Below are positions 28,303 through 58,394 of a DNA stretch of 64,000 nucleotides, piece by piece. Source of the DNA: Vicinamibacterales bacterium (GTDB taxonomy: Bacteria; Acidobacteriota; Vicinamibacteria; Vicinamibacterales; UBA2999). Numbering within the stretch: the stretch's first letter is position 1; each line of letters opens with the position of its first letter. Location of the stretch: the NCBI GenBank assembly GCA_036802945.1, contig DAIRVG010000001.1, forward strand, positions 33,166-97,165. The letters are read 5' to 3'. Position numbers and translations under genes: made by a program. The notes under the pieces were generated by a model. That model was not told where the DNA came from. It worked only from the letters and a program-made list of their open reading frames with translations, and made no database searches.

Positions 28303-28595
28303 GCCGGCATCGTAGCGTTCATCACATGGACCGTCAAACCGCGGCCGGACGCATTGACCCGCAGCTTGTAAATGGCGTAGTGTGAACGGGTTGCGGCGCT
28401 TTCCGCCCTTCTTCCAGATAAGCCGCTTCGTTAGAAAAGTGAACGTTGAACCTCGCGCGGTCTCGTTCTCGAGCCGCCCTCGTTCGTTGCGGCGACGCAC
28501 GTGCTGATCGCTCCGGTGAACGTGCTCCGCTCGTTCCTTGATCTCTTCCAATGCGCCCGTGATGACGGCAGGCCGCCAATCTTCGAGGTGACCCG

Positions 28596-34400: not shown

Positions 34401-34731
34401 CTCGCATCGGCATCGCATCCTGGGCCGCCTTACCGAGGAAGAACAGCGTCTTGAGCTGGAAACGCCGTTGGCGTACTTCAAGAACCGATTTGCCGTCGAG
34501 AAGTATCATCTCGCATTTCCCTATGGTGCTACCGGCACATGGAATGACGCCACTCTGCGGGTCGCGAAGTGCCTCGGCTACTCGAGTGGCCTGACGGTCG
34601 GGCGTCGAATCGTCAAGCCAGAGGATCTTTCGAATCCGTGGGAGTTGCCGCGATTCGACGTGCGGGACATTTTCGACGCGGACAACAATCTCTACGCGGA
34701 CAAGCTTCGCGCGCTCTTCACTTCGGATTAG
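31480..34731 (+). CDS. Fusion protein: NodU/CmcH-type carbamoyltransferase + linker domain + NodB-type polysaccharide deacetylase
   Basis: N-terminal ~570 aa contain DHHDGHAASAY, GLAPYG, CLAGGVALN, QPGCSDTGVSMG, FGPRALGHRSII, KFREGYRPYAPS, HVDNTTRP and VLNTSMN. C-terminal ~290 aa contain ITFDDGL (motif 1) and IHSHRH (the H-S/T-x-x-H motif 2) of carbohydrate esterase 4-type deacetylases. Confidence 0.9.
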   Translation: MPSRDFVYILGVPNFANYEASATLIRAPRAGGNIDYVCIGEDRLTRLKHTYVFPLRGIDYCLTAFGLESLEQVDYIYTDYARLPRWLNSGPGYRKLEHDYLKLKLNYPRERIRIVDHHDGHAASAYHPSGFDDAAVLVVDALGSELITQSLYHCKGSEVTLLERGHDWGIGRLYSLVTGAVLPYGPEKGFGKIMGLAPYGQIEPGPVLEFHARDSGMTTDYSAFFTRAPLSRIVAPEVRRCEDRERVLEPYFARAAYDVQQECERQMIRMACYAFEKTGSANICLAGGVALNGLANARVLQHSPFDNIWIQPGCSDTGVSMGLALWGYFQELATPESSRAVVSMPTPYTGRRYPDDEIRDLLAQYGVHATPVPPEEAGRLVADGKILGWFDGESEFGPRALGHRSIIADPRDPGMKDTLNHNVKFREGYRPYAPSILADHAEEWLELGCPSPFMLLVVPVREEKRSRVPAVTHVDNTTRPHTVTAEANPNYWRMIREFHRLTGVPMVLNTSMNVNREPIVEAPLDALICAFGTAIDFLYLQGLLIDCKRYANPELVKRLTAHRQQVLDDEWRRVTTKHLTGYNAAERDVYLAEENKIADWHRDYRSKYELERKISEWICQRSRVLLVGTSGHTRCLYQYVDRFDELHVTGLVSMDDLPGESADFDLYPTLGLDAVPWSDVDAVLVSTHEYQKLAVQRVRDVAPSGVEPVTIYDDAGDSLMFVLPQKWPVMNPFEHVSARRTARGTQSVAVDFDFRSSAGKLAERYALIVNYHYCHPEGGFPKGANEVRPEGLDRQLKVLKQNFAFTTIGELLNPKADLPEAVAIITFDDGLKDVAEFALPVLQRWDVPANVFCCSAPLIEKHLLDVHKTHLLRGQLGMETFRKEFMRLLGRHDLSKIPSVESLGFSHLYPYDEKSTRQFKVLLNYQLPYPILDDVLAEMFCQTCGSEEEFAERLYMSEEDLVRCQLAGCEIGIHSHRHRILGRLTEEEQRLELETPLAYFKNRFAVEKYHLAFPYGATGTWNDATLRVAKCLGYSSGLTVGRRIVKPEDLSNPWELPRFDVRDIFDADNNLYADKLRALFTSD

Positions 34732-34830: not shown

Positions 34831-36036
34831 GTGACAACAAATACGACAGCTGTGCCTGCCGCGGCACACGCGCCCGTACGCTCCACCTTTCTGCCGTACC
34901 ACCAGCCGTCAATAGACGCAGACGACGAACAGGCGGTCCTCGAGACGTTGCGATCCGGCTGGATCACGACGGGGCCTCGTACCAAGACGTTCGAGCACAC
35001 GTTGGCTGAGTACGTTGGCGCTGCCCGGGCGGTTGCGGTGAACTCGTGCACGGCGGCACTCCACCTGGCGCTCGAAGCCGCTGGCGTTGGTTCCGGCGAC
35101 GAGGTCATCACGTCGCCGATCACATTCGCGTCGACGGCAAACGTCATCGTGCATCGCGGCGCCAGGCCGGTGTTCGCCGACGTTCAACCCGACACGCTGA
35201 ACATCGACGTCGACCGTCTGGAGGCGGCAATCACGCCGCGTACAAAGGCGGTGATTCCGGTCGATTTCGCGGGCCATCCGGCCGACCTCGATGCGATCAT
35301 GGCGCTTGCTCGCAACCGCAATCTGGTTGTGATTGAGGACGCCGCGCACTCGATCGGCGCCGAGTACGGCGGGCGGCGCGTGGGCGGCATCGCCGACATG
35401 ACGGCGTTCTCCTTCTACGCCACGAAGAACATCACGAGCGGGGAGGGGGGCGCGCTGACGACGAACAACATCGAGTGGGCTGAGCGGATCGCCATCATGG
35501 CTCTCCACGGCATCAGTCGAGACGCGTGGAAGCGGTACGGCTCCGATGGCTACAAACACTGGGACATCATCTATCCCGGCTACAAGTACAACATGTTCGA
35601 TCTGCAGGGCGCGTTGGTCCTCTCGCAGCTCGCCAAGATCGATCGCTTCTGGAAGCGGCGCGTGTCGCTCAAGGCGACCCTCGACGCGGGACTGAGCGAC
35701 ATCGCGGAGATCGACAGACCCGGTGAGCGGCCGGGCATCAAACACGCGTACCACCTGTACCCGATCATCGTGCGCACGGAGGCGCTCAACGCCGACCGCG
35801 ACACGATCATGAACGCGATCCAGGCGGAGAACGTCGGCATCGGCGTCCATTTCCGCGCGGTGCATCTCCACCCGTATTACCAGGAGACGTTCGGTTTCCG
35901 CCGGGGCGACTTTCCGAACGCCGAGTACTATTCCGATCGCACGATCTCGCTGCCGCTCTATCCACGCATGTCGGACGCCGATGCGGACGATGTGGTGGCG
36001 GCCGTGCGGACGGTCATCGCGCGTTTCCGGCGATAG
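34831..36036 (+). CDS. DegT-family PLP sugar aminotransferase, ArnB-like
   Basis: Contains SGWITTGP, AVNSCTAALHLAL, FSFYATKNITSGEGG, LHGISRDAWKRY, PGYKYNM, VGIGVHFRAVH and SLPLYPRMS, collinear with ArnB-type UDP-4-keto-sugar aminotransferases. Confidence 0.9.
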   Translation: MTTNTTAVPAAAHAPVRSTFLPYHQPSIDADDEQAVLETLRSGWITTGPRTKTFEHTLAEYVGAARAVAVNSCTAALHLALEAAGVGSGDEVITSPITFASTANVIVHRGARPVFADVQPDTLNIDVDRLEAAITPRTKAVIPVDFAGHPADLDAIMALARNRNLVVIEDAAHSIGAEYGGRRVGGIADMTAFSFYATKNITSGEGGALTTNNIEWAERIAIMALHGISRDAWKRYGSDGYKHWDIIYPGYKYNMFDLQGALVLSQLAKIDRFWKRRVSLKATLDAGLSDIAEIDRPGERPGIKHAYHLYPIIVRTEALNADRDTIMNAIQAENVGIGVHFRAVHLHPYYQETFGFRRGDFPNAEYYSDRTISLPLYPRMSDADADDVVAAVRTVIARFRR

Positions 36037-36060: not shown

Positions 36061-37173
36061 ATGAACGCAGTGCAACCGGAAAAAACCTATGGTCTCCGGC
36101 GCGGCGCGGAGGAATTCCCGCTGATGCTGGTGATCTCGATCATCTATCCGTGCAACTTTGGCTGCCCGAATTGCCCGTACACGGACGCCAACTCGGAGAT
36201 CCGGCAGTTCTACCACGAGCACCACGCCGACCTGTTCCCCGTGGATCTGTGGAACAAGCTCGCGGTGGAGTGCGGCGAGCATGGCGCCTGGATGCGGTGC
36301 ACCGGCGGCGGCGAGCCGATGCTCCACCCGCACATGGTGGACATGATCGAGCTGGCCAAGGCGAAGGGCGCGCGCGTCTGGATGAACACGAACGGCAGCA
36401 TGTTCGGGCCGACGCCGGCGCTGCGCAGCAAGCTGGAGCGCCTGATCAAGGCCGGCATCGACCTGATCGAGTTTTCGATGGACGCCGGCGACGCCGAGAC
36501 GTACGCCCAGGTTCGTCCACCACACCGTGGCGGCCCGCCGCGCGATCCGCAGAAATGGTGGCTGAACGCCGTCAACAACGTTCGGGCCGCGCTCGAGCTG
36601 CGCAAGCAGTTCACGGCCACGACGCGCATCGTCGTGTCGATCATCCGGCAGCAGCAAATCGAAGGGAAGCTCGACCAGGCGATTGCCTTCTGGTTCAAGG
36701 AGGTCGGCGTCGACGAGGTGATCACACGAAAGTTCCTCACCTGGGACGACAACACGCACATTCAGCTCGGCAAGGCCCTCGATCCACATCTGTACCGGTC
36801 GATGCCGACGCAGAAAAAGGAGCCCTGCGTGTGGCCGTTCGAGCGCCTCAACGTAGACACGCTGGGACGGATCGCATTGTGCGGCCAGGACATTTCCTTC
36901 CGCACGTCAGAGTTCTTCCCGAACGCCAATGACGTGTCGATCAAGGAGATTTGGCAGGGGGAGCGCTTCACCTGGTACCGGCGGATGCACCTCGAAGGAC
37001 GCGGGGCCGAAGCGTTTCCCTGCCGCGGCTGCTCGGCCTGGTTTGCCGGCATCCGCGACTGGGATCACGGCTGGCTCAAGGTGCTGAAGACGTCTGGTGA
37101 TCACCTCAAAGACGTCATGAAGAAGGATCTCGGCGTCGACGTCGAGATCTACCAGCCCGACTCGCAACCCTGA
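36061..37173 (+). CDS. Radical SAM protein with C-terminal SPASM/twitch-like Cys cluster
   Basis: Has the CX3CX2C motif YPCNFGCPNC and a GGGEPML glycine-rich SAM motif. The C-terminus contains CVWPFERLNVDTLGRIALC and CRGCSAW. Confidence 0.85.
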   Translation: MNAVQPEKTYGLRRGAEEFPLMLVISIIYPCNFGCPNCPYTDANSEIRQFYHEHHADLFPVDLWNKLAVECGEHGAWMRCTGGGEPMLHPHMVDMIELAKAKGARVWMNTNGSMFGPTPALRSKLERLIKAGIDLIEFSMDAGDAETYAQVRPPHRGGPPRDPQKWWLNAVNNVRAALELRKQFTATTRIVVSIIRQQQIEGKLDQAIAFWFKEVGVDEVITRKFLTWDDNTHIQLGKALDPHLYRSMPTQKKEPCVWPFERLNVDTLGRIALCGQDISFRTSEFFPNANDVSIKEIWQGERFTWYRRMHLEGRGAEAFPCRGCSAWFAGIRDWDHGWLKVLKTSGDHLKDVMKKDLGVDVEIYQPDSQP

Positions 37174-37685
37174 TGACCGGGCGTGACGACGTACGCCTGG
37201 TGCCGCTGGGGCGGGAGCACCTGGCGCGGACACGCGAGTGGACCAACGATTCGGATCTGATGCGGTTGATGGATCGCAGCAGGATCGTCTCGGAGATCGA
37301 ACACGAAGCCTGGTTCGCCTCGATCGCCACACGAGACGATTGTGAGTACTTCGCCATAGAGCAGGCGGGGGAACCACGCCACGTCGGCAACGTCTGGCTC
37401 TGGGCGATTGACGCCCGTCATTGCAAAGCCGAGCTGCGCATTGTCGTCGGCGAGCCCTCGGCGCGCGGCCGCGGCGTCGGCCATCTCGCGATCGATCACC
37501 TCTGCCGGCACGCGTTCGACCAGCTCGCCCTTCATCGCATCTACGCGTATGTCCTCGCGATCAATCCCGGCGGGAAGCGCGCTTTCGAGAAGGCGGGCTT
37601 CGTCGTCGAGGGGCGGCTCAAGGACGATCGGTCGACCGCCAGCGGCTTCGTCGACAGTTGGCTGCTCGCCCGGGTCGTTCGTTGA
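37173..37685 (+). CDS. GNAT N-acetyltransferase (RimL/PseH-like)
   Basis: Contains LVPLGREHL..EW.ND, EHEAWF, RGRGVGHLAIDHL, YAYVLAINPGGKRAFEKAGFVVEG. Its start overlaps the upstream stop by 1 nt (TGATG). Confidence 0.8.
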   Translation: MTGRDDVRLVPLGREHLARTREWTNDSDLMRLMDRSRIVSEIEHEAWFASIATRDDCEYFAIEQAGEPRHVGNVWLWAIDARHCKAELRIVVGEPSARGRGVGHLAIDHLCRHAFDQLALHRIYAYVLAINPGGKRAFEKAGFVVEGRLKDDRSTASGFVDSWLLARVVR

Positions 37686-37729
37686 CCGTATCGAGACAAA
37701 TGACCTAGAATGAATACGTTACAGCTTCA

Positions 37730-38113
37730 ATGCTTCACCTAATCTACGACGGCCAGTGTGGGTTCTGCCGGCGAGCGCTGGCTGCCGCGCTGCGCGTCGA
37801 CATCAACGGACGTCTCCGTCTCCACGACGCCACCCACCGCGAGTACGTGCACGGCGAGTTCCCCGAACTGGCGGGCGCTGACTTCGATAACGCGATGTTC
37901 GCCGTCGACGAAGACCGGCGCGTGACGCGCGGATTCTTCGCGTTCCGGCGCGTCGCGTGGGAAAGTCCTCTTACGTGGCCGTTGCTCCTGCTGTTCTACC
38001 TGCCGGGCGCTGGTGTCGTCGGGTCGCGGCTGTATGCGTGGGTGGCGCGCAATCGCCGTCGCTTCGGATGCGAGTCCGACATCTGCGAGCTGCCGCGGCC
38101 CCCTCGCCGTTGA
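37730..38113 (+). CDS. DCC-family thiol-disulfide oxidoreductase (DUF393)
   Basis: Contains LIYDGQCGFCRR near the N-terminus, ...RLRLHD..., and YAWVARNRRRFGC at the C-terminus. This is the typical DCC1-like layout. Confidence 0.8.
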   Translation: MLHLIYDGQCGFCRRALAAALRVDINGRLRLHDATHREYVHGEFPELAGADFDNAMFAVDEDRRVTRGFFAFRRVAWESPLTWPLLLLFYLPGAGVVGSRLYAWVARNRRRFGCESDICELPRPPRR

Positions 38114-38114
38114 A

Positions 38115-39575
38115 GTGATCGACGCTCTTCTCCCCGATCTCAGCTTCTCCACACAGGCGCTGGTTCGCGTGGGCTATGGCGTGCTGATGCTGTTGACGCT
38201 GGCCCAGGCACTGCCGAACGCGCGACGCTTCTTCCTGAGCGAGCGATGGGGCGGCTACGCGAAGTCGTCGCGTGACGTGGATGCGATTCAGAACCCGCGC
38301 GTGCTGCCGATGCTGCTCATCGTCTGGTTCGGAGCAGCATTCGCAATCACGTTCGGATGGGCGATGCCTTGGGCCGCGCTCGTCAACCTCGTGCTCTGCG
38401 GGTACTTCTTCATCCACATGCGGTGGAAGGGGATCCTGCGCGGCATGGGTGCGCCGGGGTTCATGGCGTACTGGGTGGGTTTCGCGGTTTTCCTGCTCGA
38501 ATACACCTCGCGGTATGCGCCGGACCTGCGATCGCTGGCGCTGCTGGTCCTGCAAGTGGACCTCGCGCTCGTCATGCTGTCCGCTGGTGTGTACAAGTTC
38601 ACGGCCGGGTATCCACGCAATCACGGCATGGAGCTCGGGATGGCCAACCCGATGTGGGGCTATTGGTGGAGGCGTTACATCAAGCTGCCCCCCAACCACG
38701 CGGTGTTCTGGACACTGAATCAGCTGGCGTGGGGAACGGAAGTTGTTGCAGCGCTGCTCATGCTCGTTCCCGGGACACGCGAGCTCGGCGGGCTCCTCCT
38801 CAGCGCGAGCTTCGTGTTCATCCTCACGCAGATCCGTCTCGGGTTCCTGTGCGAGATGGTCGTCGTGTCCGGGCTCCTGTACGTCGTGGCGGGCAGCCCC
38901 CTCGACGGCTGGATCGCGGCATTGGTGGGCGTGCCCCCGGCGCCCTCGGTCGGGACGGGACCGGGGTTCGCGATTGCCAATGCCGCGCTCGGCGCCGCGC
39001 TCATCGTCTACCTCGTGCTGTTGCCGCTTGCGCATGCCGGTCTCTACTACAACTTCTACGCGCGTCGTTCGTTTCCAGCGCCGCTGCAGCGGCTCCTCGA
39101 GCGGTATACGAATCTGTTCGGGATGATCATCTGGCGCGTGTTCTCGGTGGATCTGGTGAACTTCTTCATCCACGTGCATACGGAGTCTCCGGAGGGCGGA
39201 TCGCGCACGCTGGTCGGGAGGCTGGGGACGTGGCCGCGGTTCAATCATGTCGGCGAGATGATCTGCATCACGTCGCTCTTCACCACGCTCAAGTACTACC
39301 CGGCCGACGACGGCATCTTTCGTGAGCGGCTGCTGAGGTACGCGCGCACCATTGCGCGGCCGAAGGCGTCGGTGCTCGTGTTCGAGTACATCAGGGTGGT
39401 GAAGCGGCCGACGCACTTCGATTGGGTACCCGCCGCCGAGTATCGCGTTGATGTCGATGCCGGCACCGTCTCGGAACGGCTCCTCGACAACAGTTTCTCG
39501 CCCCGCGCGGCGCACGCGGTATCGCCCGTGCACGCAGGCGCCGTCCCGGGCAGCTACGCGCCCGCGAGTCGCTGA
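38115..39575 (+). CDS. Polytopic membrane protein, HTTM/lipase-maturation-factor-like (tentative)
   Basis: GTG 38115 lies immediately after the DCC stop. The track ORF start at 38013 would overlap DCC by 100 nt. The protein has several hydrophobic helices starting at ALVRVGYGVLMLLTLAQAL and a soluble C-terminal ~150 aa. The family call rests on the layout and the known DCC-HTTM neighbourhood. Confidence 0.6.
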   Translation: MIDALLPDLSFSTQALVRVGYGVLMLLTLAQALPNARRFFLSERWGGYAKSSRDVDAIQNPRVLPMLLIVWFGAAFAITFGWAMPWAALVNLVLCGYFFIHMRWKGILRGMGAPGFMAYWVGFAVFLLEYTSRYAPDLRSLALLVLQVDLALVMLSAGVYKFTAGYPRNHGMELGMANPMWGYWWRRYIKLPPNHAVFWTLNQLAWGTEVVAALLMLVPGTRELGGLLLSASFVFILTQIRLGFLCEMVVVSGLLYVVAGSPLDGWIAALVGVPPAPSVGTGPGFAIANAALGAALIVYLVLLPLAHAGLYYNFYARRSFPAPLQRLLERYTNLFGMIIWRVFSVDLVNFFIHVHTESPEGGSRTLVGRLGTWPRFNHVGEMICITSLFTTLKYYPADDGIFRERLLRYARTIARPKASVLVFEYIRVVKRPTHFDWVPAAEYRVDVDAGTVSERLLDNSFSPRAAHAVSPVHAGAVPGSYAPASR

Positions 39576-39576
39576 G

Positions 39577-41364
39577 ATGTGCGGGATTGCGGGCATCTTC
39601 GGAAAGGCCGATCCGCCCACGGTCCACCGGATGCTGGAAACGCTGCGCCACCGCGGTCCCGACGACGGCCACGTGGTGTCGGGAGAGGGCTACACGATTG
39701 GTGCGCGGCGTCTGAGCATCGTCGACGTCGAAGGCGGTCGACAGCCTCTAACCAACGAGGATGCCACCGTCGTCGCCACACAAAATGGCGAGATCTATAA
39801 CTTTCCAGAGTTGCGGCCTGCCTTGCTCAAAGCGGGGCATCGACTGCAGACGCACACCGATACCGAGGTGCTTCCCCACCTGTGGGAAGACTTCGGCGAG
39901 CGGCTTCCCGAGCACATCCAGGGCATGTTCGCGATCGCGGTATGGGACGCCCGCCAGCGCGTGGGACTGCTTGCACGCGATCGCATGGGGAAGAAGCCGC
40001 TGTACTACTGGGAACAGGACGGCGCGCTGTATTTCGCCTCCGAGCTGAAGGCGCTGCTCGTTGTCCCTGGCTTCACGCGGCGCCTCAATCACGAGGCGCT
40101 GCATCATTACCTGAGCTATAAGCACGTCCCGCATCCGCTGACGATTTTCGAAGGCGTGCGGATGCTGGCGCCGGCGCACCGGCTGCTGTTCCGTCCCGGC
40201 GCGTCACCGGCCATCTCCCGCTACTGGTCGCTGTCGTTTGCCCCATCGAACGGTCACGTTCCAGATGAGCGCGAGGCCGTCGACGAGTTGCTCGCGCGAT
40301 TGCGAACCGCCGTGCGCCGCCGGCTGATGTCGGACGTTCCGGTAGGTTTCTTCCTCAGCGGCGGCCTTGATTCATCGCTGACGACGGCGCTGGCGACGGA
40401 AGTCGCGCCCGGGCGGATCAAGACGTTCACGCTGACTTACGACGACGCCGCGACCACTGCGGGCAAGGAGCAGGACCGCCGGTGGGCCGGATGGGTTGCG
40501 GAACACTACGGTACCGACCATCACGAGGAAAGCATCTCGGTGTCGAACTATCCGGAGCAGCTACGAGCGATTCTCCGGGCATTCGACGAACCCTTCGCCG
40601 GTGTGGTCTCTACGTATTTCCTCGCGCAGCGCATGGCGCGGCACGTGAAGGTCGCGATCGCAGGGGATGGCGCCGACGAATTGTTCGGGAGTTATTTGTC
40701 TCACCGGATCGCGGCGGGTGCCCAAACCCTCCCCGGGGCTTCCGGCCTGGCGGATTGGGAGTGGCGCGCGCGCCTGCTGGTGCTCAGTGAGGAGGAGAAA
40801 TGTTCGTTGTACTCGCCGGCCATGCGTGACGCGCATGGCGATGCGACGACGACCGCACACCTCCGTCATTCATTTGAGGGGCTGACGGCGCGCGATCCGC
40901 TGAACCGGATGCTCGAGGCCGAGTTCCACGGCATCTTTCCCGATCAGGTCCTGGCGTTTGTCGATCGCCTTTCGATGGCGCATTCGCTCGAAGTGCGCAG
41001 CGCGTTTCTCGATACCGACGTCGTCGAATATGTGGCGAGCCTTCCCGGCGCTCTCAAGATCTTCGACGGTGAAACGAAGCACGTGCTCAAGCAGGCGGCC
41101 CTCCGGTATTTCCCCGAGGAGATGGTACGGAGGCCGAAGGAAGGCTTCCTCATGCCCGTGACCAACTGGGTGATGAACGACCTCCAGTCGTGGGTGCGCG
41201 AGATGCTCTCGCCCGAGCGGCTCCGCCTTCACGGTCTGTTCAACGTCGAACGTGTGGATAAACTGGTGGACGTGATCTACCGGCCTGGCTGCGATTACAC
41301 GGACGTGAACAAGGTCCTGGCGCTCGTGATCTTCCAGGAATGGTACGAGCTGTATCTCACGTAG
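39577..41364 (+). CDS. asnB: Asparagine synthetase B-type glutamine amidotransferase
   Basis: Starts MCGIAGIF (N-terminal nucleophile Cys2). Contains HRGPDD, NGEIYN and the SGGLDSS PP-loop, followed by a C-terminal synthetase domain. ATG 39577 lies 1 nt after the upstream stop. Confidence 0.9.
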   Translation: MCGIAGIFGKADPPTVHRMLETLRHRGPDDGHVVSGEGYTIGARRLSIVDVEGGRQPLTNEDATVVATQNGEIYNFPELRPALLKAGHRLQTHTDTEVLPHLWEDFGERLPEHIQGMFAIAVWDARQRVGLLARDRMGKKPLYYWEQDGALYFASELKALLVVPGFTRRLNHEALHHYLSYKHVPHPLTIFEGVRMLAPAHRLLFRPGASPAISRYWSLSFAPSNGHVPDEREAVDELLARLRTAVRRRLMSDVPVGFFLSGGLDSSLTTALATEVAPGRIKTFTLTYDDAATTAGKEQDRRWAGWVAEHYGTDHHEESISVSNYPEQLRAILRAFDEPFAGVVSTYFLAQRMARHVKVAIAGDGADELFGSYLSHRIAAGAQTLPGASGLADWEWRARLLVLSEEEKCSLYSPAMRDAHGDATTTAHLRHSFEGLTARDPLNRMLEAEFHGIFPDQVLAFVDRLSMAHSLEVRSAFLDTDVVEYVASLPGALKIFDGETKHVLKQAALRYFPEEMVRRPKEGFLMPVTNWVMNDLQSWVREMLSPERLRLHGLFNVERVDKLVDVIYRPGCDYTDVNKVLALVIFQEWYELYLT

Positions 41365-41389: not shown

Positions 41390-42229
41390 ATGTCCAAACC
41401 ATCCGTGCCCTGCCCTGCGTGCGCGAATACTCACACGAAGGCGATCAAGCCGTGGCGGCTCGGGAAACACAACGCCATCGCCTGTTGGCGGTGCGGGCTG
41501 GTTTTCACCCATCCGCAGCCCGCTCCCGAGACGTTGGAGGCGTACTACCAGCCCGACGGCGGATGGCGTGAGTTCCGTCCCGATCCGAAGGGGACGGATG
41601 CACAGACGCGCCACAAGGGTCCGGGGGGATTGGCGGTACTCGACGTGCTCGACAGATACGTGCCGCCGGGCACGCGACGCGTGCTCGATTTCGGCTGCGG
41701 CGTCGGCGCGTGGCTGAACGTGCTTCAGGATCGCGGATGGGAAACGTACGGCATCGAGCCGTCGAGTGATGCCGCCTTCGTCCGCCACCAGCGCCTGCAT
41801 GAGATCCCGAGCGACGGCAGTTTCGACCTGCTGGTGATGTATCACGTTCTCGAACACCTGCCTCGGCCGCTCGAGACGTTACGTCAGCTTTCCGCGGCCA
41901 TGCGGGTGGGCGGGTACTGCTTCGTCAGCGTCCCGCGTTTGGATGCGGTGGCGGCACACCGAAAGCTGACCTACTGTCTCCACCCTACACACCACATCGT
42001 GGCGTTCACCGAGGCGTGCCTTCGCGGGCTGCTTGCCGGCGCCGGTTTCCAGGTGGTCACCGCGCTGCACGAAATGGATCCGCTCTTCACCGACGGCGTC
42101 CCGCTTCGGTTGCGCCTTCTGGCTCGCCGGGTCGCGAACCCGTTGCCGTGGCCCGATCCCGCGAAGTCGCTGCGCGCACTGTTCGAGAACCTGATTCCCC
42201 TCCTCGAGGAGCGGAAAGAAGCCCGGTGA
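41390..42229 (+). CDS. Zinc-ribbon SAM-dependent methyltransferase (paralogue of 19535..20368)
   Basis: Contains CPACA...CWRCGLVFTHPQP, VLDFGCGVGAWLN, MYHVLEHLPRPLETL and HHIVAFTEACLRGLLA. Confidence 0.8.
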   Translation: MSKPSVPCPACANTHTKAIKPWRLGKHNAIACWRCGLVFTHPQPAPETLEAYYQPDGGWREFRPDPKGTDAQTRHKGPGGLAVLDVLDRYVPPGTRRVLDFGCGVGAWLNVLQDRGWETYGIEPSSDAAFVRHQRLHEIPSDGSFDLLVMYHVLEHLPRPLETLRQLSAAMRVGGYCFVSVPRLDAVAAHRKLTYCLHPTHHIVAFTEACLRGLLAGAGFQVVTALHEMDPLFTDGVPLRLRLLARRVANPLPWPDPAKSLRALFENLIPLLEERKEAR

Positions 42230-43032
42230 GTGTCGACATCCTTCCCGGAACGCCGCGCGTGTCGTTCGGTCTCTCGATGCTCGGATGGGCGCTCAATGAA
42301 GAAGAGAGCATCGGTTCGTATATCGATCGCGCAGGCGCGTTCCTTCAAACGCTGACCGATGACTTCGAGCTGATCGTCATCGACGACGGCAGCCGCGATC
42401 GGACCTGGGAGATCCTGGTCGACTACCAGCGGTCGCGCCCGTGGCTGAAGCCGTACCGCAACGAACGCAACTTCGGTTCGGGCTACAACACGAAGCGCGC
42501 GATCTCTCTCGCCTCGAAGGACTACGTGTTCTGGCAGACGGTCGATTGGGCGTACGACATCCGGCATCTGGCGCATGCGCTGAACGATCTCCACACGGTC
42601 GACGTGCTGCAGGGCGTCCGGCGTCACACGACTTCCGCTGGCGCGATCCTCGAACGGCGATCGGACAATGCCTACAAGGGGCTGGTGTCGGTCGTCAATT
42701 ACCACCTGATCCGGACGCTGTTCAGGCTCCCAATCCACGACTATCAGAACGTGACGGTGTATCCTCGCGGCCTGATCCAGGGCGTGAGGCTCGAGACGGA
42801 GAGCTCGTTCACCAACGCCGAGTGTCTGTTGAAGACATGGTGGCAGGGAGCGACGTTCAAGGAAGTGCACGTGCCGTTTGTCAAACGGCAGCGCGGCACC
42901 GGTACGGGGACGCGGCCGCGCGCAATCGCGGCGGCGATTCGAGACATCCTCTCGTGGTGGACGAAATGGGTTCTGCTCGGCCGGCGCCCGCACAGCGGCC
43001 GCGGGCGCGTCATCTCGATCGATGAATCGTGA
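42226..43032 (+). CDS. GT2 glycosyltransferase
   Basis: GTG 42226 overlaps the upstream stop (GTGA). Contains LIVIDDGSRDRT and NERNFGSGYN, and a basic C-terminal tail. Confidence 0.85.
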   Translation: MSVDILPGTPRVSFGLSMLGWALNEEESIGSYIDRAGAFLQTLTDDFELIVIDDGSRDRTWEILVDYQRSRPWLKPYRNERNFGSGYNTKRAISLASKDYVFWQTVDWAYDIRHLAHALNDLHTVDVLQGVRRHTTSAGAILERRSDNAYKGLVSVVNYHLIRTLFRLPIHDYQNVTVYPRGLIQGVRLETESSFTNAECLLKTWWQGATFKEVHVPFVKRQRGTGTGTRPRAIAAAIRDILSWWTKWVLLGRRPHSGRGRVISIDES

Positions 43033-48662: not shown

Positions 48663-49394
48663 ATGGAAGACCCTTCGGAGGGTCAGACCCTCGTCGTCCT
48701 CCAACCCGGCTACCTGCCCTGGCTGGGGTTCTTCGATCAGTTCCGGCGTGCGGACATCTTCGTGTATTACGACGACGTCCAGTATGACAAGCATGGCTGG
48801 CGCAACCGGAACCGCATCAAGACGCGGCACGGGCCGCAATGGCTGACGGTGCCGGTGAAGCATGCAGGCCTTGGCCTGCCGCGGATCCTGGATGTCACGA
48901 TCGACGGGCGCACGCCGTGGGCACGGAAACACGTGGCGAGTATCCGACAGGCGTACGCGCGCGCGCCATTCGCGCCGCGGTACCTGCCGCAATTGGAGGC
49001 CGTGCTGCAGCAGTCGTGGGAGCGGCTGATCGACCTCGACATCGCCGTCATCGATCTGATGTGCACCTGGTTCGGGCTGTCGCGGCGCGTGGAGCGCTCA
49101 TCGGCGCTCGGCATCGAAGGCGGGAAGAGCGAGCGGCTGCTCAGGTTCTGCCAGCACTTTGGCGCCGGCCGGTACCTGAGTGGCAACGCAGCGCGGGACT
49201 ATCTGGATACGGCGCTGTTCGTACGTGAAGGTATCCATGTCGAGTGGCAGAACTTTCAGCCGCCGACCTATCCACAGCTCCACGGCGAGTTCGTGCCGCA
49301 CCTGTCCGCGCTCGACCTCGTGCTGAATTGCGGCGACAATGCGCGCGCGATTCTCGAAGGCGGCGAAATTTCACACTCTGGAACGACAACGTGA
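48663..49394 (+). CDS. WbqC-family protein
   Basis: Contains LQPGYLPWLGFFDQ, VYYDDVQYDKHGWRNRNRIKT and GPQWLTVPV, as in WbqC-like proteins of amino-sugar O-antigen clusters. Confidence 0.8.
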   Translation: MEDPSEGQTLVVLQPGYLPWLGFFDQFRRADIFVYYDDVQYDKHGWRNRNRIKTRHGPQWLTVPVKHAGLGLPRILDVTIDGRTPWARKHVASIRQAYARAPFAPRYLPQLEAVLQQSWERLIDLDIAVIDLMCTWFGLSRRVERSSALGIEGGKSERLLRFCQHFGAGRYLSGNAARDYLDTALFVREGIHVEWQNFQPPTYPQLHGEFVPHLSALDLVLNCGDNARAILEGGEISHSGTTT

Positions 49395-50428
49395 AGACAT
49401 TTCTCATCACCGGCGGCGCAGGGTTCATCGGCAGCAACTTCGTACGGTACCTGTACGACAACTACCCCGAGTATCGGATCCGGGTGCTCGACCAGCTTAC
49501 CTACGCGGGAAGCGTCGAGAACCTCCCGGTCGGGTTCAACGAGGCTTCTTCCGACGGCCGTCTTCAGTTCTGGTACGGCGACGTGCGGAACGCGTCGCTG
49601 GTCGATACGCTCGTGGAAGACGCGGACGTGGTGGTGCACTTCGCCGCCGAAACGCACGTCACGCGGTCGATTTACGACAACTACCACTTTTTCGAGACCG
49701 ACGTGCTTGGCACACAGGTGGTGGCCAATGCGGTGCTCAAGCATGTCAAGGGCGTCAACCGGTTCATTCACATCTCGACGTCGGAAGTCTATGGCACGGC
49801 GGTGAGTGCCAAGATGGGCGAGGACCATCCGCTGATGCCGATGAGCCCGTACGCGAGCGCGAAGGCGGGCGCCGACCGACTCGTATATTCCTACTGGGCC
49901 ACGTACCGGCTGCCTGCGATCATCGTCCGGCCGTTCAACCAGTACGGGCCGCATCAGCACCTCGAAAAAGTGATTCCGCGGTTCATCACGAGCTGCCTGC
50001 TCGACGAACCGCTGCGCGTGCATGGTGACGGTTCGGCCGCGCGCGACTTTACCTACGTCGGCGACACATGCCGCGCGCTCGACGCAATTGCCCACTGTGA
50101 GCTCGAGAAGGTCGTTGGCGAGGTGATCAACCTCGGGTACGGCGAGAGCTACACCCTTTCGCAGATAGCGCCGATGATTGTGCGGAAGATGAACAAGCCG
50201 GCAAGCCTGATCACGTACGTCGGGGATCGGCCCGGGCAGGTCTTCCGCCATACGGCCGACGCAAGCAAGGCGCAGCGTTTGCTCGGCTGGACGCCGCAGG
50301 TCGGCTTCGAAGAGGGGCTGGATAAGACCATCGCGTGGTACCTGGCGAACAGGCCGTGGTGGGAAAAACAGCTGTGGATGCGCGAGATCCCGATCATCAC
50401 CAAGTCGGGAAAGCGCGAGATGCACTGA
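49391..50428 (+). CDS. rfbB: dTDP-glucose 4,6-dehydratase-like NDP-sugar dehydratase
   Basis: GTG 49391 overlaps the upstream stop. Contains ITGGAGFIGSNFVRY, LTYAGSVENL, HFAAETHVTRSI, HISTSEVYG, SPYASAKAGADRL, NQYGPHQHLEKVIPRF and GDGSAARDFTYV. Confidence 0.85.
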   Translation: MKTFLITGGAGFIGSNFVRYLYDNYPEYRIRVLDQLTYAGSVENLPVGFNEASSDGRLQFWYGDVRNASLVDTLVEDADVVVHFAAETHVTRSIYDNYHFFETDVLGTQVVANAVLKHVKGVNRFIHISTSEVYGTAVSAKMGEDHPLMPMSPYASAKAGADRLVYSYWATYRLPAIIVRPFNQYGPHQHLEKVIPRFITSCLLDEPLRVHGDGSAARDFTYVGDTCRALDAIAHCELEKVVGEVINLGYGESYTLSQIAPMIVRKMNKPASLITYVGDRPGQVFRHTADASKAQRLLGWTPQVGFEEGLDKTIAWYLANRPWWEKQLWMREIPIITKSGKREMH

Positions 50429-50494: not shown

Positions 50495-51769
50495 ATGGAT
50501 AGCCTGATCGTTGAGGGTCTCGGCAAGCGGTACTTTCTTCCATCCAAGAGGCCCACGGAGGAGCCCCGGCCCGCGCTGCGTCTCGGCCGGTTGACGATAC
50601 CGCGATTGCCGTGGAACCGGCGCCGCAAGGCGGACCGGGAGCTGTGGGCGTTACGAAACGTCTCGTTTGCCGTCCCGCACGGCACGATCCTGGGCATCAT
50701 CGGCGCAAATGGGGCGGGCAAGTCGACGCTGCTGAAAATCATCGCACGCGTCACGCGGCCGACCGAGGGACGGGTCATCGGATTCGGGCGCGTCGTCTCG
50801 CTGCTGGAGCTCGGCGCGGGGTTCAATCCGGACTTTTCCGCGTACGACAACATCCTGATGAACGCGGCGATGCACGGGATCTCACGGCGCGAGGCGCTGA
50901 AGCGGATAGACGAGATCGTGTCGTTTGCCGAGCTCGACGAATTCCTCGACAACCCGCTGCGCCAGTACTCGAGCGGGATGTATCTCCGTCTCGCGTTTTC
51001 CGTCGCGATCAACATGCAGCCGGACATCCTTCTTGCCGACGAGATCCTGGCGGTCGGAGACATGGCGTTCCAGGACCGCTGTCTTGCCCGCGTCGCGCAG
51101 GAGGCCGAGCGAGGGCTCACGGTGCTGTTCGTGTCGCACGACATGTCGGCGTTGTCCCGGCTGTGCGATCGCATCGTCTGGATCGACAAGGGCGAACTTG
51201 TCCGCGATGGTGACCCCGAGCCGGTGATTGCGGAGTACGAGGAGACGGCGCTTCGGGGCAAGCACGGCGCTCGCGGCTTCGGCGACACGGCGGGGCGACA
51301 CACCAACGTGGAGGCGGAGATCGCGAGCGTCCGCCTGTTGAACACGGCAGGTGAGGAGATCGGTGCGGCGCCGACGGGCGAAGACGTCTACATCAGGCTG
51401 CGGCTGAAGGTCCGAAAGCCGGGACGCGCGGTCAGGGGCGTGGTGGACGTGAACGCGAAAGGCGTCTTCCTGTTCCGCACGGTACAGTCCGAGGAATTCG
51501 TGTCGGACCGCCGCGGCGTGGTCGATCTGATCGTCCGCATTCCGCCGAATCTGCTCGCAGAAACGACCTACTCGGTGAACGTCACGGTGTACACGCGATG
51601 GGAGAAGGAATCCAAGATCGTGCTGGCGAATGCGTTGACGTTCATGGCGTACGGCGAGCAGCACGGCGCGGAGTTCAAGAGCCGGGTCAGAAGCGGTGTG
51701 ATCGCGCCGCAGCTCGAGTGGCACGTTCGAACCCACGCGAATGATGGGAAGCGAAAGGTACGCGTATGA
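50495..51769 (+). CDS. wzt: Polysaccharide ABC exporter ATP-binding protein with C-terminal extension (Wzt-type)
   Basis: Has Walker A GANGAGKST, the signature YSSGMYLRLAF and Walker B ILLADE, plus the GAGFNPDFSAYDNI block typical of Wzt/TagH. The NBD is followed by a ~170-aa beta-rich C-terminal domain. Confidence 0.9.
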   Translation: MDSLIVEGLGKRYFLPSKRPTEEPRPALRLGRLTIPRLPWNRRRKADRELWALRNVSFAVPHGTILGIIGANGAGKSTLLKIIARVTRPTEGRVIGFGRVVSLLELGAGFNPDFSAYDNILMNAAMHGISRREALKRIDEIVSFAELDEFLDNPLRQYSSGMYLRLAFSVAINMQPDILLADEILAVGDMAFQDRCLARVAQEAERGLTVLFVSHDMSALSRLCDRIVWIDKGELVRDGDPEPVIAEYEETALRGKHGARGFGDTAGRHTNVEAEIASVRLLNTAGEEIGAAPTGEDVYIRLRLKVRKPGRAVRGVVDVNAKGVFLFRTVQSEEFVSDRRGVVDLIVRIPPNLLAETTYSVNVTVYTRWEKESKIVLANALTFMAYGEQHGAEFKSRVRSGVIAPQLEWHVRTHANDGKRKVRV

Positions 51770-51836
51770 GGCGTACTGCGGCGGTGTCTCGTTGGCACCG
51801 ACGCACGCGGCGGCGAGCGGCGCCGGCGAGTAGGCG

Positions 51837-52718
51837 ATGAACCCGATGTCATCGAGCGCCAGCGAGGCGGCAGAACGTTCTGCCTGGAGCATCAGCGCCG
51901 ACGCGCGCGATGGTTTTGCAGCGCGCGTCCGCGAAGTGTGGCAGTACCGCCGCATCCTGTGGTTCTTCGCGTTGCGCGCAACCCAGGCGCTTTATCGTAA
52001 GACCTACCTGGGCGTCTGGTGGCTGTTCATCCGGACCCTCGTGCCCCTCATCGTTGGCGCGTTCGTGTTCGGTGCGGTGATCAATGTCCCATCGGGCGGG
52101 GTCCCGTATTTGGTGTTCTTCCTGGCGGGCCAGCTCGCCTGGAACTTTTTCGACGGTCCGCTCGTACGTGCCAGCCGTGGCATCGACGGCAACCGGCAGT
52201 TGCTGACGAAGCTGTACATCCCGCGAATCATCCTGCCGCTCGGTCAAATGGCAGCCGGCGTCGTCGAACCAATCATCATCGCCGTGATTCTCGTCGTGAC
52301 CGTGGTGTATTACCGACGCGTCGACGGCGTCTGGTACGTCCAGCCGGGCCTGCGACTGATGGCCGCGTCCGCGGCCGTCCTTGTGATCCTCTGGTTTGCG
52401 TTCGCGCTGTCGCTCTTCACCTCGGTGTGGCAGGGGCGTGCACGTGATACGCGGTTCGTGCTGCGGCACATCGTCGGGTTCTGGCTCCTTTTGACGCCGG
52501 TGGTCTATCCCGCCTCCCAGGTGTCGGCGCGGATTCGCTGGCTGATCTATGTCAACCCGCTCACGGCGCCGGTGGAAACGTTCAAATGGGCCGTGCTGCC
52601 AGGCATGGAGCACTCGTGGCCGTGGTTCATGTACAGCGTCGGCCTGACGGCAGCGCTCTTCGTCGCCGGCTTGTGGTATTTCGCGCGCTCCGAAGGCGCT
52701 ACGATGGACAAGCTGTGA
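51837..52718 (+). CDS. wzm: ABC-2 type polysaccharide exporter permease (Wzm, copy 1)
   Basis: Contains RRILWFFALRATQALYRKTYLGVWWLFIRTL, six hydrophobic segments and a YVNPLT..ETFKW block. Confidence 0.85.
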   Translation: MNPMSSSASEAAERSAWSISADARDGFAARVREVWQYRRILWFFALRATQALYRKTYLGVWWLFIRTLVPLIVGAFVFGAVINVPSGGVPYLVFFLAGQLAWNFFDGPLVRASRGIDGNRQLLTKLYIPRIILPLGQMAAGVVEPIIIAVILVVTVVYYRRVDGVWYVQPGLRLMAASAAVLVILWFAFALSLFTSVWQGRARDTRFVLRHIVGFWLLLTPVVYPASQVSARIRWLIYVNPLTAPVETFKWAVLPGMEHSWPWFMYSVGLTAALFVAGLWYFARSEGATMDKL

Positions 52719-53557
52719 GCGCGCGATGGGAATTCGGGTCGCGTTCCCCCGGGGTTGGTGCGACGACGGTCGACGTGTGGCAACACAGGTGGCTGTTGCG
52801 AACCGTGGCGGTGCGGGCGTTTCAGCGTATGTACCGGCGCACGATCCTCGGCTGGCTGTGGCTGGTGATCAATCCGCTTCTGCCGTTGGTGATCCGCGCG
52901 ATCATCTTTGGTGCGCTGCTCGGAGTCTCATCGGACGGGCTGCCGTATTTTCTCTTCCTGCTCGGCGGTTCTATTGCCTGGGATCTGTTTGCGGCGACGT
53001 TGATGCGCGGCACCCGCGCCCTCGAGATGCATCGCGAGATGTCGGATCTGATCTATTATCCGCGCGCGATCCTGCCGATCGGTAACATCGCGCCGGCACT
53101 GTTGGAGCTCGGAATCAAGCTTGGCGTCTTTGTCGTGGCGCTGGTCTACTACATGATTCACGACGGCCGGCTCTACGTGCGATCGGACGCCGCGCTGCTC
53201 TGGGGTCTCTGCGCGCTCGTGCTCGCCCTGATCTTTGCGCTCGCCATTTCGCTCTTTACCTCGGTGTGGGGCGAAACGACGCGCGACACCCGTTTTGCGC
53301 TGAACCAGCTCTCCTCCGTCTGGTACTTGTTGACGCCGGTGCTTTACCCGATGTCGCAGGTGCCGGAGGCGTACCGCGGGTGGATCGTCTGGAACCCGAT
53401 GGCGGTCATCGTCGAGACGTTCAAGTGGGGAGTCTTCGGCGTCGGGACGTTTCAGCCGGTGCTGTTCGCCTGGACCGCCACTGCGATCGGCGGTCTGTTT
53501 CTCGCCGGTTTGATCTACTTTACGCGCACCGAGGCACGGATTATCGATGCGCGCTGA
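52715..53557 (+). CDS. wzm: ABC-2 type polysaccharide exporter permease (Wzm, copy 2)
   Basis: GTG 52715 overlaps the upstream stop (GTGA). Contains RWLLRTVAVRAFQRMYRRTILGWLWLVINPL and a WNPMAVIVETFKW block, parallel to copy 1. Confidence 0.8.
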   Translation: MSARWEFGSRSPGVGATTVDVWQHRWLLRTVAVRAFQRMYRRTILGWLWLVINPLLPLVIRAIIFGALLGVSSDGLPYFLFLLGGSIAWDLFAATLMRGTRALEMHREMSDLIYYPRAILPIGNIAPALLELGIKLGVFVVALVYYMIHDGRLYVRSDAALLWGLCALVLALIFALAISLFTSVWGETTRDTRFALNQLSSVWYLLTPVLYPMSQVPEAYRGWIVWNPMAVIVETFKWGVFGVGTFQPVLFAWTATAIGGLFLAGLIYFTRTEARIIDAR

Positions 53558-58386: not shown

Positions 58387-58394
58387 CTAACTGC

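Follow-up and report, generated by a model that had tools for sequence, protein, structure and literature searches.

In GGCX, the human vitamin K-dependent carboxylase, K218 deprotonates vitamin K hydroquinone, W223 stacks on K218, D263 adjoins K218 with a hydrogen bond to the quinone, the naphthoquinone ring is capped by M401, the Glu carboxylate is bound by N159, H160 and Y395, and F299 stacks on CO2 (PMC12647623). MloH is a bacterial GGCX orthologue of malonomycin biosynthesis that carboxylates a small-molecule aspartyl group (Law et al. 2018, as cited in PMC12647623, PMC12186529, bioRxiv 10.64898/2026.08.19.745780). Since MloH acts on a small molecule, it provides a precedent for bacterial GGCX homologs with small-molecule substrates. 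A fused protein with HTTM and DCC1-like domains was described (bioRxiv 10.64898/2026.08.19.745780), and pairs of DoxX and thioredoxin proteins in lasso-peptide clusters were proposed to form disulfides (PMC9266682). The amidotransferases WbpS (P. aeruginosa, P. gingivalis) and WbqG (E. coli O121), both members of TIGR03108, turn sugar uronic acids into uronamides (PMC7468200). Here, we describe five genes at positions 36061-41364 of a stretch of DNA of 64,000 nucleotides (the window) on contig DAIRVG010000001.1 of a Vicinamibacterales bacterium (Acidobacteriota). They encode a radical S-adenosylmethionine (SAM) enzyme, a GNAT N-acyltransferase, a DCC1-like oxidoreductase, a polytopic membrane protein and an AsnB-type amidotransferase, and the membrane protein almost certainly belongs to the GGCX superfamily.

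The best explanation for this cassette, to which we give an even chance, is that the five genes are central to a conserved module, about eight genes in size, that builds an unusual amino sugar for a glycan exported by Wzm/Wzt. That the module serves in sugar tailoring of some kind is very probable. The module was composed of an RmlB-like short-chain dehydrogenase/reductase (SDR), a DegT 4-aminotransferase, a GNAT or a formyltransferase, a twitch radical SAM enzyme, the membrane protein, an optional DCC protein, a WbpS-like AsnB and WbqC. GGCX/HTTM proteins, DCC proteins, twitch radical SAM enzymes and WbpS-like amidotransferases are already known kinds of protein. What is new is a GGCX-fold family without an existing model, its near-obligate association with both a radical SAM enzyme and an amidotransferase, and its occurrence as part of a glycan pathway in many phyla. 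In the literature searched, the coverage of which was incomplete, no paper was found that connects homologs of vitamin K-dependent carboxylase with the synthesis of polysaccharides.

Organization of the Cassette

Five co-directional open reading frames (ORFs) were present on the forward strand. They encoded the radical SAM enzyme (36061..37173, 370 aa), a PseH/RimL-like GNAT (37173..37685, 170 aa), a DCC1-like thioredoxin-fold thiol-disulfide oxidoreductase (37730..38113, 127 aa), the membrane protein (38115..39575, 486 aa) and the AsnB-type glutamine amidotransferase (39577..41364, 595 aa). The spacings in gene order were -1 (an overlap, TGATG), 44, 1 and 1 nt. The gene for a DegT/ArnB/PseC-like pyridoxal phosphate-dependent sugar 4-aminotransferase (34831..36036, forward strand; PF01041, 3.5e-129), itself a member of the module, ended 24 nt before the start of the radical SAM gene. 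An earlier note on this DNA, made from the sequence, had described five tightly coupled genes (-1 to 44 nt) behind an ArnB-like aminotransferase, and all of these ORFs were found where it had placed them. The GC content at third codon positions was 0.78-0.86 across the five genes, and the G+C content of the window was about 64%. The gene boundaries were identical in public gene calls on contigs of the same organism, including the GTG start of the membrane protein, and the named homologs came from metagenome-assembled genomes (MAGs) of Vicinamibacterales (Acidobacteriota). The cassette sits inside an ABC-transporter-dependent (Wzm/Wzt) O-antigen-like locus, which spans about 12.7 kb to 63 kb of the window and lies mostly on the forward strand.

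Membrane Protein with a Predicted GGCX Fold

The membrane protein of the window had no HTTM, LMF or other match in Pfam (at E<=10) or in NCBIfam, and hence none to PF05090, the model of the HTTM/vitamin K-dependent carboxylase superfamily (DoxX-like clan). In a set of 5.8 billion proteins, at least 1154 homologs at E<=1e-3 were found among 8000 candidates scored, and the 120 best homologs among the matches listed were all unnamed and carried no Pfam domain. An exhaustive search gave 367 clusters at 50% identity. From this family, 66 diverse members were taken for the profile and for conservation. Scanned individually with Pfam, six of the 66 matched DoxX (best 4.5e-5), three matched HTTM PF05090 (best 1.6e-4) and two matched MauE; we take these three to belong to the same Pfam clan. 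NCBIfam gave no meaningful match for any of the 66 members, and the family profile found only chance-level matches among PDB sequences.

An AlphaFold2 model built from the alignment of 66 sequences had a mean pLDDT of 96.4 and a pTM of 0.94. In a Foldseek search of the PDB with this model, the top 16 matches were all human GGCX (E 1.1e-6 to 1.2e-2, probability 1.0), and the first entry after them stood at E 0.28. The alignments covered about 500 columns and took in the transmembrane (TM) core and the C-terminal domain. For the first 14 matches, the TM-scores normalised by the query were 0.46-0.49, and the last two had 0.43 and 0.33. The membrane protein is thus predicted to have the fold of GGCX, with a polytopic TM core and a C-terminal domain. 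The earlier note had called it HTTM-like on the understanding that some HTTM or LMF similarity would appear in a hidden Markov model (HMM) search. Taken alone, the window protein showed none, which formally counts against the label for this protein, but the HMM matches within the family and the structure search overturn this, and the label was right.

Residues were mapped by an hhalign alignment of the family profile with a single human GGCX sequence, identical to the PDB chains (E 0.08-0.09, 451 columns), a weak alignment that was used because the fold search was unambiguous. The residues kept were SAGVYK161 for IAGVKK218 of GGCX, Y166 for W223, M172-E173 for M229-E230, E209 for D263, N333 for N392, and W340-R-V342-F343 for W399-D-M401-M402. 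The quinol-deprotonation triad of GGCX, K218/W223/D263, therefore has its counterpart in K161/Y166/E209, with Y166 five residues past K161 and E209 on the next helix. Among the 66 homologs, K161 was present in all, Y166 was Tyr in 62 and Phe in three (aromatic in 65/66), and E209 was Glu in 56 and Gln in 10. W340 was found in 65/66 and R341 in 66/66, and V342 and F343 were essentially invariant. Five Arg residues (R103, R109, R241, R341 and R375) were invariant in this family and its own, a set that would fit an anionic substrate. The large C-terminal domain, which is homologous to the substrate-binding domain of GGCX, was strongly conserved (R375, E381, F389, Y394, F402). No conserved Cys was found in the family alignment.

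The membrane protein thus shares with GGCX a polytopic TM domain followed by a C-terminal beta-rich domain, a Lys base with an aromatic residue five positions later and an acidic residue on the next helix, a W-x-hydrophobic cap, and a thiol partner, in that a CxxC protein is encoded beside the membrane protein and VKOR is functionally paired with GGCX. It differs from GGCX in its sequence (about 15% identity and no HMM match), in the replacement of the Glu-binding residues N159/H160/Y395 and of the CO2-stacking F299, and in its context of nucleotide-sugar enzymes instead of a propeptide-bearing protein substrate. The partners also differ, being a soluble DCC thioredoxin-fold protein here and the four-helix membrane protein VKOR for GGCX. 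The active site is predicted to be cytoplasmic, whereas that of GGCX faces the lumen of the endoplasmic reticulum (PMC12647623). Like MloH, the membrane protein would be a bacterial enzyme of the GGCX superfamily in a small-molecule pathway, with a non-protein substrate and a C-H beside a carboxyl group. Compared through its published description, MloH was reported with both the CO2-stabilising and the KH2-deprotonating residues, whereas the family described here keeps the latter only, and the context of MloH is one of nonribosomal peptide and polyketide synthases (NRPS/PKS), not of glycans (PMC12647623).

The fused protein of Melghirimyces, which has a DUF5819 partner, also brings HTTM-type and DCC domains together, and its predicted complex resembles the whole of GGCX (bioRxiv 10.64898/2026.08.19.745780). 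There, the domains are fused, the equivalent of the lumenal domain is supplied by the separate DUF5819 protein and the context is another one; in the window, the membrane protein includes this C-terminal domain itself, and DCC has a gene of its own, which is optional.

Conservation of the Gene Cluster

One genome per GTDB species was searched for loci with the membrane protein, using a profile of 17 closer sequences, since the alignment of 66 sequences held no stretch that was conserved enough. This gave 80 loci in species-representative genomes from more than 12 phyla. The carriers were Acidobacteriota, Methylomirabilota, Nitrospirales, Chloroflexota, non-photosynthetic Cyanobacteria, Planctomycetota, Binatia, Burkholderiales, Bdellovibrionales, Omnitrophota, Eremiobacterota, Dormibacterota, Latescibacterota, Actinomycetes and others. 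In the 53 species-level loci that extended 5 kb or more to each side, we counted which window genes had orthologs within 10 kb of the membrane gene. AsnB was present in 94% of these loci, the radical SAM enzyme in 89% (47/53), the SDR in 83%, the aminotransferase and WbqC in 77% each, and GNAT in 58%. In 19% of the loci, a formyltransferase occupied the same position as GNAT, so that one or the other was found in about 77%. A GT2 glycosyltransferase and Wzt were each found in 36%, and DCC in 34%. The immediate 5' neighbour of the membrane gene, in 67 loci, was DCC in 23, GNAT in 15, the radical SAM gene in seven and the formyltransferase gene in five, and the immediate 3' neighbour was AsnB in 38/73.

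The reverse search was seeded with the radical SAM enzyme and covered radical SAM enzymes of at least 73% identity in metagenome loci with adequate flanks. The membrane protein was present in 23/23 and AsnB in 22/23 of these loci. A homolog of the membrane protein with 25% identity was still flanked by a DCC gene and a radical SAM gene (63% identity). The SDR, the DegT aminotransferase, WbqC, glycosyltransferases and Wzm/Wzt were the conserved neighbours in each of the phyla examined. When the ORFs of the loci were all clustered without bias, no further widely shared family emerged. Lineage-specific extras were observed in the loci, namely peptidase M20, an Antibiotic_NAT-type acetyltransferase, an NTP-transferase and methyltransferases. 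The gene arrangement is far beyond chance. The expectation that the five-gene unit would be syntenic in other genomes, inside a glycan locus, was thus upheld both by the species-representative loci and by those seeded with the radical SAM enzyme.

Radical SAM Enzyme and AsnB

The radical SAM enzyme (Radical_SAM, 1.5e-12) carried the cluster motif CX3CX2C at C31/C35/C38 and the SAM-binding residues G82-G83-G84-E85, which were conserved in at least 97% of 64 homologs; the cluster Cys were present in 63/64, and the remaining sequence had a gap there. The enzyme was conserved to an unusual degree, with 73-88% identity across Acidobacteriota, Methylomirabilota, Binatia and others. In the C-terminal part, only four Cys were conserved (C256, C274, C321 and C324; Cx17Cx46Cx2C) among the 64 homologs, which were 39-88% identical. 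The Pfam SPASM model matched with 29.5 bits against a cutoff of 21.5, but the seven Cys and two auxiliary clusters of a full SPASM domain were not found in the enzyme. The closest relatives in a phmmer search of PDB sequences were BlsE (8e-6) and BtrN (2e-4), and the Cys region aligned to the auxiliary-cluster region of BtrN. The four ligands of BtrN reportedly have the same spacing pattern, as described by Goldman and colleagues in 2013. Because only four auxiliary Cys are conserved and they align to this region of BtrN, the auxiliary domain is predicted to be a one-cluster twitch domain like that of BtrN and not a full SPASM domain. The SPASM-type assignment of the earlier note therefore stood as far as the Pfam score goes and had to be corrected for the number of Cys. 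Its question as to whether the enzyme resembles sugar-acting or peptide-modifying members was answered by a BtrN-like twitch domain with BlsE and DesII as the nearest relatives. With the AlphaFold2 model as the query, the top Foldseek matches were BlsE, DesII, PqqE, viperin and BtrN (E 1e-6 to 2e-5).

The sugar-acting radical SAM enzymes of desosamine (DesI/DesII), blasticidin S (BlsE/BlsH) and butirosin (BtrN) biosynthesis were thus the nearest matches in sequence and structure. BtrN has the same four-Cys twitch pattern, and the DesI/DesII, BlsE/BlsH and BtrN systems also have an aminotransferase beside the radical SAM enzyme. The best PDB match of the module SDR was DesIV of the desosamine pathway. 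The identity of the radical SAM enzyme to DesII, BlsE and BtrN was only 14-20%, and we know of no GGCX-like protein, DCC, AsnB or WbqC in the three pathways.

AsnB (GATase_7, 1.5e-42; Asn_synthase, 8.6e-86) began with MCGIAG and so has Cys2, the nucleophile of class II glutaminases, in addition to both domains. The top-scoring model was TIGR03108 with 476 bits, below its trusted cutoff of 816.9, and TIGR01536 matched with 441 bits, above its cutoff of 267. From these features, AsnB is predicted to be a true amidotransferase that is closest to the sugar-carboxylate amidotransferases WbpS and WbqG. Like these, it has TIGR03108 as its best model and would be Gln-dependent in an O-antigen/LPS (lipopolysaccharide) type of sugar locus (PMC7468200). 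It differs from them in the score just given and in its partner, as the module SDR resembles a 4,6-dehydratase, and such an enzyme would provide no carboxylate at C6 for amidation.

These two enzymes bear on the question of peptide maturation, which the earlier note had kept as an alternative. In that case, the cassette would be a pathway for a peptide that is made by ribosomes and modified after translation (RiPP), in which the radical SAM enzyme would crosslink or epimerise a precursor peptide, AsnB would be a cyclase of the lasso or lactam type, and DCC and the HTTM-like protein would make disulfides or carboxylate Glu or Asp. The SPASM score above the cutoff, weak NCBIfam matches of the radical SAM enzyme to PqqE, sactipeptide and other maturases and of AsnB to the lasso cyclase, and the presence of PqqE, SkfB and SuiB among the structural neighbours would agree with this, as would the fact that Glu and Asp residues are the targets of GGCX and MloH. 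However, no ORF of at least 20 aa was found in any of the gaps of the cassette (-1 to 44 nt), which leave no room for a precursor. No RRE peptide-recognition domain was found in the radical SAM enzyme, whose cluster motif begins at residue 31 and leaves no N-terminal room for one, and its auxiliary domain is of the twitch type. For the question of sugar or peptide, the arrangement of the Cys and the lack of an RRE domain weigh more than the fold search, which does not separate the two kinds of relative cleanly. AsnB retained Cys2 and scored only 212 bits on the lasso-cyclase model. The conserved neighbours were invariably sugar enzymes, and genes for small peptides, PqqD or proteases/exporters were never among them. 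We therefore rejected the RiPP reading, which we regard as extremely improbable, in favour of sugar tailoring.

DCC Protein and Membrane Topology

DCC matched the DCC1-like family (PF04134, 5.9e-18) with 66.6 bits against a cutoff of 27.8 and carried DGQCGFC at residues 7-13. An N-terminal DGxCxFC and a C-terminal GCxxxxC were conserved in 30 orthologs. The window protein and 29 orthologs also shared a hydrophobic stretch, SPLxWPLxPLFYxPG, which could serve for docking on the membrane or on a partner protein. No signal peptide was read from the sequence, in which the CxxC motif starts at residue 10, and no relative was found in the PDB. The earlier note regarded DCC and HTTM proteins as a known gene pair. 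This agrees with the fused protein (bioRxiv 10.64898/2026.08.19.745780) and with the divergent homolog between DCC and the radical SAM enzyme, and by analogy the fusion and the DoxX and thioredoxin pairs support a functional pairing of the membrane protein with DCC. Because the membrane protein has no conserved Cys and thus no thiol relay, the dithiol of DCC would have to act directly on a bound quinone species. Such direct action, as of the CxxC of VKOR on vitamin K epoxide, would favour epoxide-forming chemistry of the GGCX type with DCC as the recycler.

The helices of the AlphaFold2 model were taken as TM segments, and Lys and Arg residues in the loops were counted for each side of the membrane. 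The side with K161, the W340 cap and the C-terminal domain had 19 Lys and Arg in the window protein and a mean of 15.0 over the 66 homologs, while the opposite side had 3 and a mean of 2.3, respectively. Read by the positive-inside rule, this bias predicts an active site on the cytoplasmic side and a short acidic N-terminus outside. The earlier note had suggested that the HTTM-like protein and its redox partner act on the exported polymer or its lipid carrier. Action on the polymer disagrees with the predicted orientation and with a DCC protein that lacks a signal peptide; a target at the inner leaflet, in the form of a lipid-linked sugar, is possible.

An extracytoplasmic role, in which both proteins would act on the exported polymer or a lipid-linked precursor, for example through periplasmic modification or disulfide-linked redox chemistry, has some points in its favour. 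The active site of eukaryotic GGCX faces the lumen of the endoplasmic reticulum, the equivalent of the periplasm (PMC12647623). The many large unannotated GT-C-like membrane proteins and the polyprenyl-phosphate-type GT2s of the locus suggest periplasmic decoration, and disulfide formation was proposed for the DoxX/thioredoxin pairs of lasso-peptide clusters (PMC9266682). Against this, the charge bias, which is strong and consistent over the 66 homologs, would put K161 and the C-terminal domain in the cytoplasm, and DCC lacks a signal peptide and has its CxxC close to the N-terminus. The tightest partners (the radical SAM enzyme, AsnB and GNAT) are cytoplasmic, cofactor-dependent enzymes, and the bacterial homolog MloH acts on an NRPS/PKS intermediate. 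Taken together, we consider an extracytoplasmic role improbable and prefer a site of action on the cytoplasmic face.

The main rival gives both proteins another task. The GGCX-like protein and DCC would be a redox shuttle for the radical SAM enzyme, from the quinone pool through the thiols of DCC to the iron-sulfur clusters, either to dispose of the electron from a dehydrogenation of the BtrN type or to supply reductant; the sugar would not be modified by them, and no O2 would be needed. The near-obligate coupling of the radical SAM enzyme and the membrane protein (23/23 and 47/53 loci) and the retention of radical SAM and DCC neighbours by a highly divergent homolog are in line with such a shuttle, as are the relatives of the family in the DoxX clan (DoxX and MauE matches). 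Such relatives, as known from DoxD/DoxX, are quinone- or thiol-linked redox proteins. The module was also found in lineages that are possibly anaerobic, and the K/E pair could be used for quinone protonation as well as for quinol deprotonation. On the other hand, twitch dehydrogenases of the BtrN kind are believed to reuse their electron internally, dithiols carry two electrons and Fe-S clusters one, and two thirds of the loci had no DCC. The conserved C-terminal domain and the invariant Arg residues suggest a bound substrate beyond the passage of electrons. We consider this shuttle unlikely, and continue with the sugar intermediate as the substrate of the membrane protein.

Aminotransferase, Acyltransferase, SDR and WbqC

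The aminotransferase matched TIGR03588 (PseC) with 394.6 bits and the ArnB model with 373 bits, both below the cutoffs. GNAT (Acetyltransf_3, 1.2e-18) matched the PseH model with 65.8 bits (cutoff 93.1). At the position of GNAT, a related Vicinamibacterales-like genome had a fusion of a formyltransferase with a GNAT domain (483 aa; 8151-9602 of locus L005).

The SDR (49391..50428, forward strand), nominally an RmlB/DesIV-like NDP-hexose 4,6-dehydratase, matched TIGR01181 with 329.5 bits against a cutoff of 365 and DesIV (PDB 1r66) with 2.5e-72. It had the motif STSEVYG instead of STDEVYG, and Ser stood at the position of Asp in 50/50 module orthologs (48 STSEVYG, 2 SSSEVYG). Both the TIGR01181 cutoff score and the Asp-Glu dyad of a dTDP-glucose 4,6-dehydratase (RmlB/DesIV) were thus lacking in the SDR. 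The Ser-Glu pair is presumably typical of Gmd, UXS and ArnA. Judged from this motif, the SDR is possibly not a canonical 4,6-dehydratase. A second SDR of the window (43872-44846) also had STSEVYG and was 35% identical to the first. Since the SDR has lost the dehydratase Asp, amidation of a C6 uronate by AsnB as the whole story is attractive. A UDP-glucose dehydrogenase was not part of the conserved module, either among the neighbour orthologs or in the ORF clustering, so the C6-uronate reading lacks support from this enzyme.

WbqC (48663..49394, forward strand; PF08889, 2e-76) had no NCBIfam model and no PDB relative by sequence or profile, and no useful literature on it was found. Six loci without WbqC and without GNAT or formyltransferase carried a PylC-like ATP-grasp ligase, and no locus with WbqC had this ligase. 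These six (L017, L025, L026, L027, L032 and L063, from Pyrinomonadaceae and other Acidobacteriota) had an additional SDR, and their AsnB was divergent (40% identity). The mutual exclusion of WbqC and the PylC-like ATP-grasp enzyme suggests a part for WbqC in the attachment of an N-linked acyl or aminoacyl group.

The Arn pathway was also compared. Shared features were an ArnB-like aminotransferase and a formyltransferase, an SDR whose STSEVYG motif is of the ArnA/UXS type, a GT2 like ArnC, a domain of the deacetylase family and, nearby, large membrane transferases. However, all scores were far under the Arn equivalog cutoffs, the SDR was much nearer to RmlB/DesIV, and the Arn pathway has no radical SAM enzyme, GGCX-like protein, AsnB or WbqC.

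Other Genes of the Glycan Locus

Downstream of the cassette, the genes encoded a methyltransferase, a GT2, a hexapeptide acyltransferase, an Arn-like set, WbqC, the SDR, Wzt and two Wzm permeases. The GT2 glycosyltransferase (42226..43032, forward strand, 268 aa; PF00535) had no TM segment; it is the GT2 of the locus counts, which comes after AsnB in about one third of the loci. The Wzt ATPase (ABC_tran, Wzt_C) and the two Wzm-type ABC-2 permeases (ABC2_membrane twice), encoded at 50495..53557 on the forward strand, are the export system for the glycan. The two permease genes lay in tandem after Wzt (51837-53557), and their longest ORFs overlapped by about 130 nt; the true start of the second permease is probably further downstream.

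The Arn-like set at 43872-48511 contained an SDR, an ArnA-N-like formyltransferase (NF005414, 180 bits), a polyprenyl-phosphate-type GT2 and an unannotated membrane protein of 676 aa, which suggests a lipid-linked sugar that is transferred outside the cytoplasm. Directly 5' of the module aminotransferase, a protein of 1083 aa (31480-34731) consisted of a NodU-like carbamoyltransferase (N- and C-terminal domains) fused to a polysaccharide deacetylase. A second amino-sugar set at 14620-17970 encoded a sugar C-methyltransferase (Methyltransf_13/14), a Gmd-like protein and an aminotransferase resembling LegC and perosamine synthase; the Gmd-like protein scored 373 bits on the GDP-mannose 4,6-dehydratase model (cutoff 415). 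Two Methyltransf_23 paralogs (19535-20368 and 41390-42229) were 63% identical, each with a Cys-rich, zinc-ribbon-like N-terminus and each beside a GT2 gene, and the pair looks like a duplication within the locus.

Thirteen large ORFs of the glycan locus (415-933 aa) had no Pfam match at the thresholds used. They were located at 12741-14459, 23964-26342, 28596-31397, 46481-48511, 53547-54935, 56659-58386, 58167-60155, 60152-61399 and 61396-63063 and, on the reverse strand, at 20352-22244, 22255-23730, 26332-28551 and 54952-56547. A further ORF on the reverse strand (10583-12382) had a weak PMT_2 match. These 13 ORFs and the PMT_2 ORF may encode GT-C-type membrane glycosyltransferases or other unmodelled glycan proteins.

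Proposed Pathway

In the proposed pathway, the SDR and the aminotransferase would produce an NDP-4-keto sugar and then a 4-amino sugar, and the amine would be capped by GNAT or the formyltransferase. The radical SAM enzyme would then abstract a hydrogen from the sugar, leading to an oxidation or dehydration of the DesII/BlsE/BtrN type. The GGCX-like enzyme, with its active site at the cytoplasmic face, would draw on the (mena)quinol of the membrane, and probably on O2, to form a strong base or oxidant, which would act on a C-H beside a carboxyl or amide of an anionic intermediate, maybe NDP-linked or polyprenyl-phosphate-linked; the invariant Arg residues probably bind this intermediate. The spent quinone or quinone epoxide would be re-reduced directly by the CxxC of DCC, which would make DCC a soluble analogue of VKOR. 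Finally, AsnB would turn a sugar carboxylate into a carboxamide, as WbpS and WbqG do.

We infer that a quinone-dependent step, in which a sugar intermediate is acted on at the inner membrane face, is the most economical account, because it fits the conserved quinol site, the Arg-rich putative substrate side and the cytoplasmic neighbour enzymes. Whether the GGCX-like protein catalyses such a step on the sugar could go either way in our judgement. Chemistry of the GGCX type with O2 and an epoxide, and with DCC as the recycler, is a more tentative proposal that we think somewhat less than even. A further version, in which the GGCX-like enzyme would be a quinol/O2-driven sugar C-carboxylase, AsnB would amidate the new carboxylate and DCC would recycle the quinone epoxide in the cytoplasm, is doubtful, and we rate it as quite unlikely. 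Here, a C-H beside a carboxyl or amide, on the amino sugar or on its N-acyl or aminoacyl substituent, would be deprotonated and CO2 added, as in the conversion of Glu to Gla.

Several observations weigh against the proposed pathway. The carboxylation half-site of GGCX was replaced in the membrane protein (by hhalign, N159 to G106, H160 to I107, Y395 to G336 and F299 to L245), and L245 was invariant in the family. The residue equivalences come from a weak sequence alignment (hhalign E 0.084) backed by the fold match, the window protein itself had no HTTM HMM match, and the topology is a prediction from charge bias. DCC adjoined the membrane gene in only about one third of the loci. The model of the radical SAM enzyme was of moderate confidence (pLDDT 74), and the peptide maturases PqqE, SkfB and SuiB were matched at E-values similar to those of the sugar-acting enzymes. 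Because STSEVYG replaces STDEVYG in the SDR, the sugar could be a 6-deoxyhexose, a pentose or a sugar that keeps its C6 carboxyl. The module was carried by MAGs labelled as Omnitrophota, Elusimicrobia and Anaerolineae, which may be anaerobes, and by Burkholderiales, which use ubiquinone, an occurrence that agrees poorly with chemistry dependent on O2 and naphthoquinol. The carrier genomes were uncultured and nearly all MAGs.

Implications

MloH was the one characterised case of the GGCX superfamily in bacteria that we found. The family described here is a distinct, unmodelled branch of this superfamily (367 clusters) that is tied to a defined pathway, with a radical SAM enzyme, an amidotransferase and amino-sugar enzymes as partners, among mostly uncultured soil and freshwater bacteria of more than 12 phyla, and it raises the tractable question of which sugar-tailoring step needs a membrane quinol enzyme. 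If the proposed pathway is true, vitamin K-type chemistry would extend from proteins and one antibiotic to cell-surface glycans, DCC proteins would be assigned a role, and a new sugar structure would be predicted on abundant Acidobacteriota. If the carboxylase version is true, the module would amount to a bacterial vitamin K cycle that is complete in itself and serves glycan biosynthesis, with a branched or malonate-type sugar that has not yet been described.

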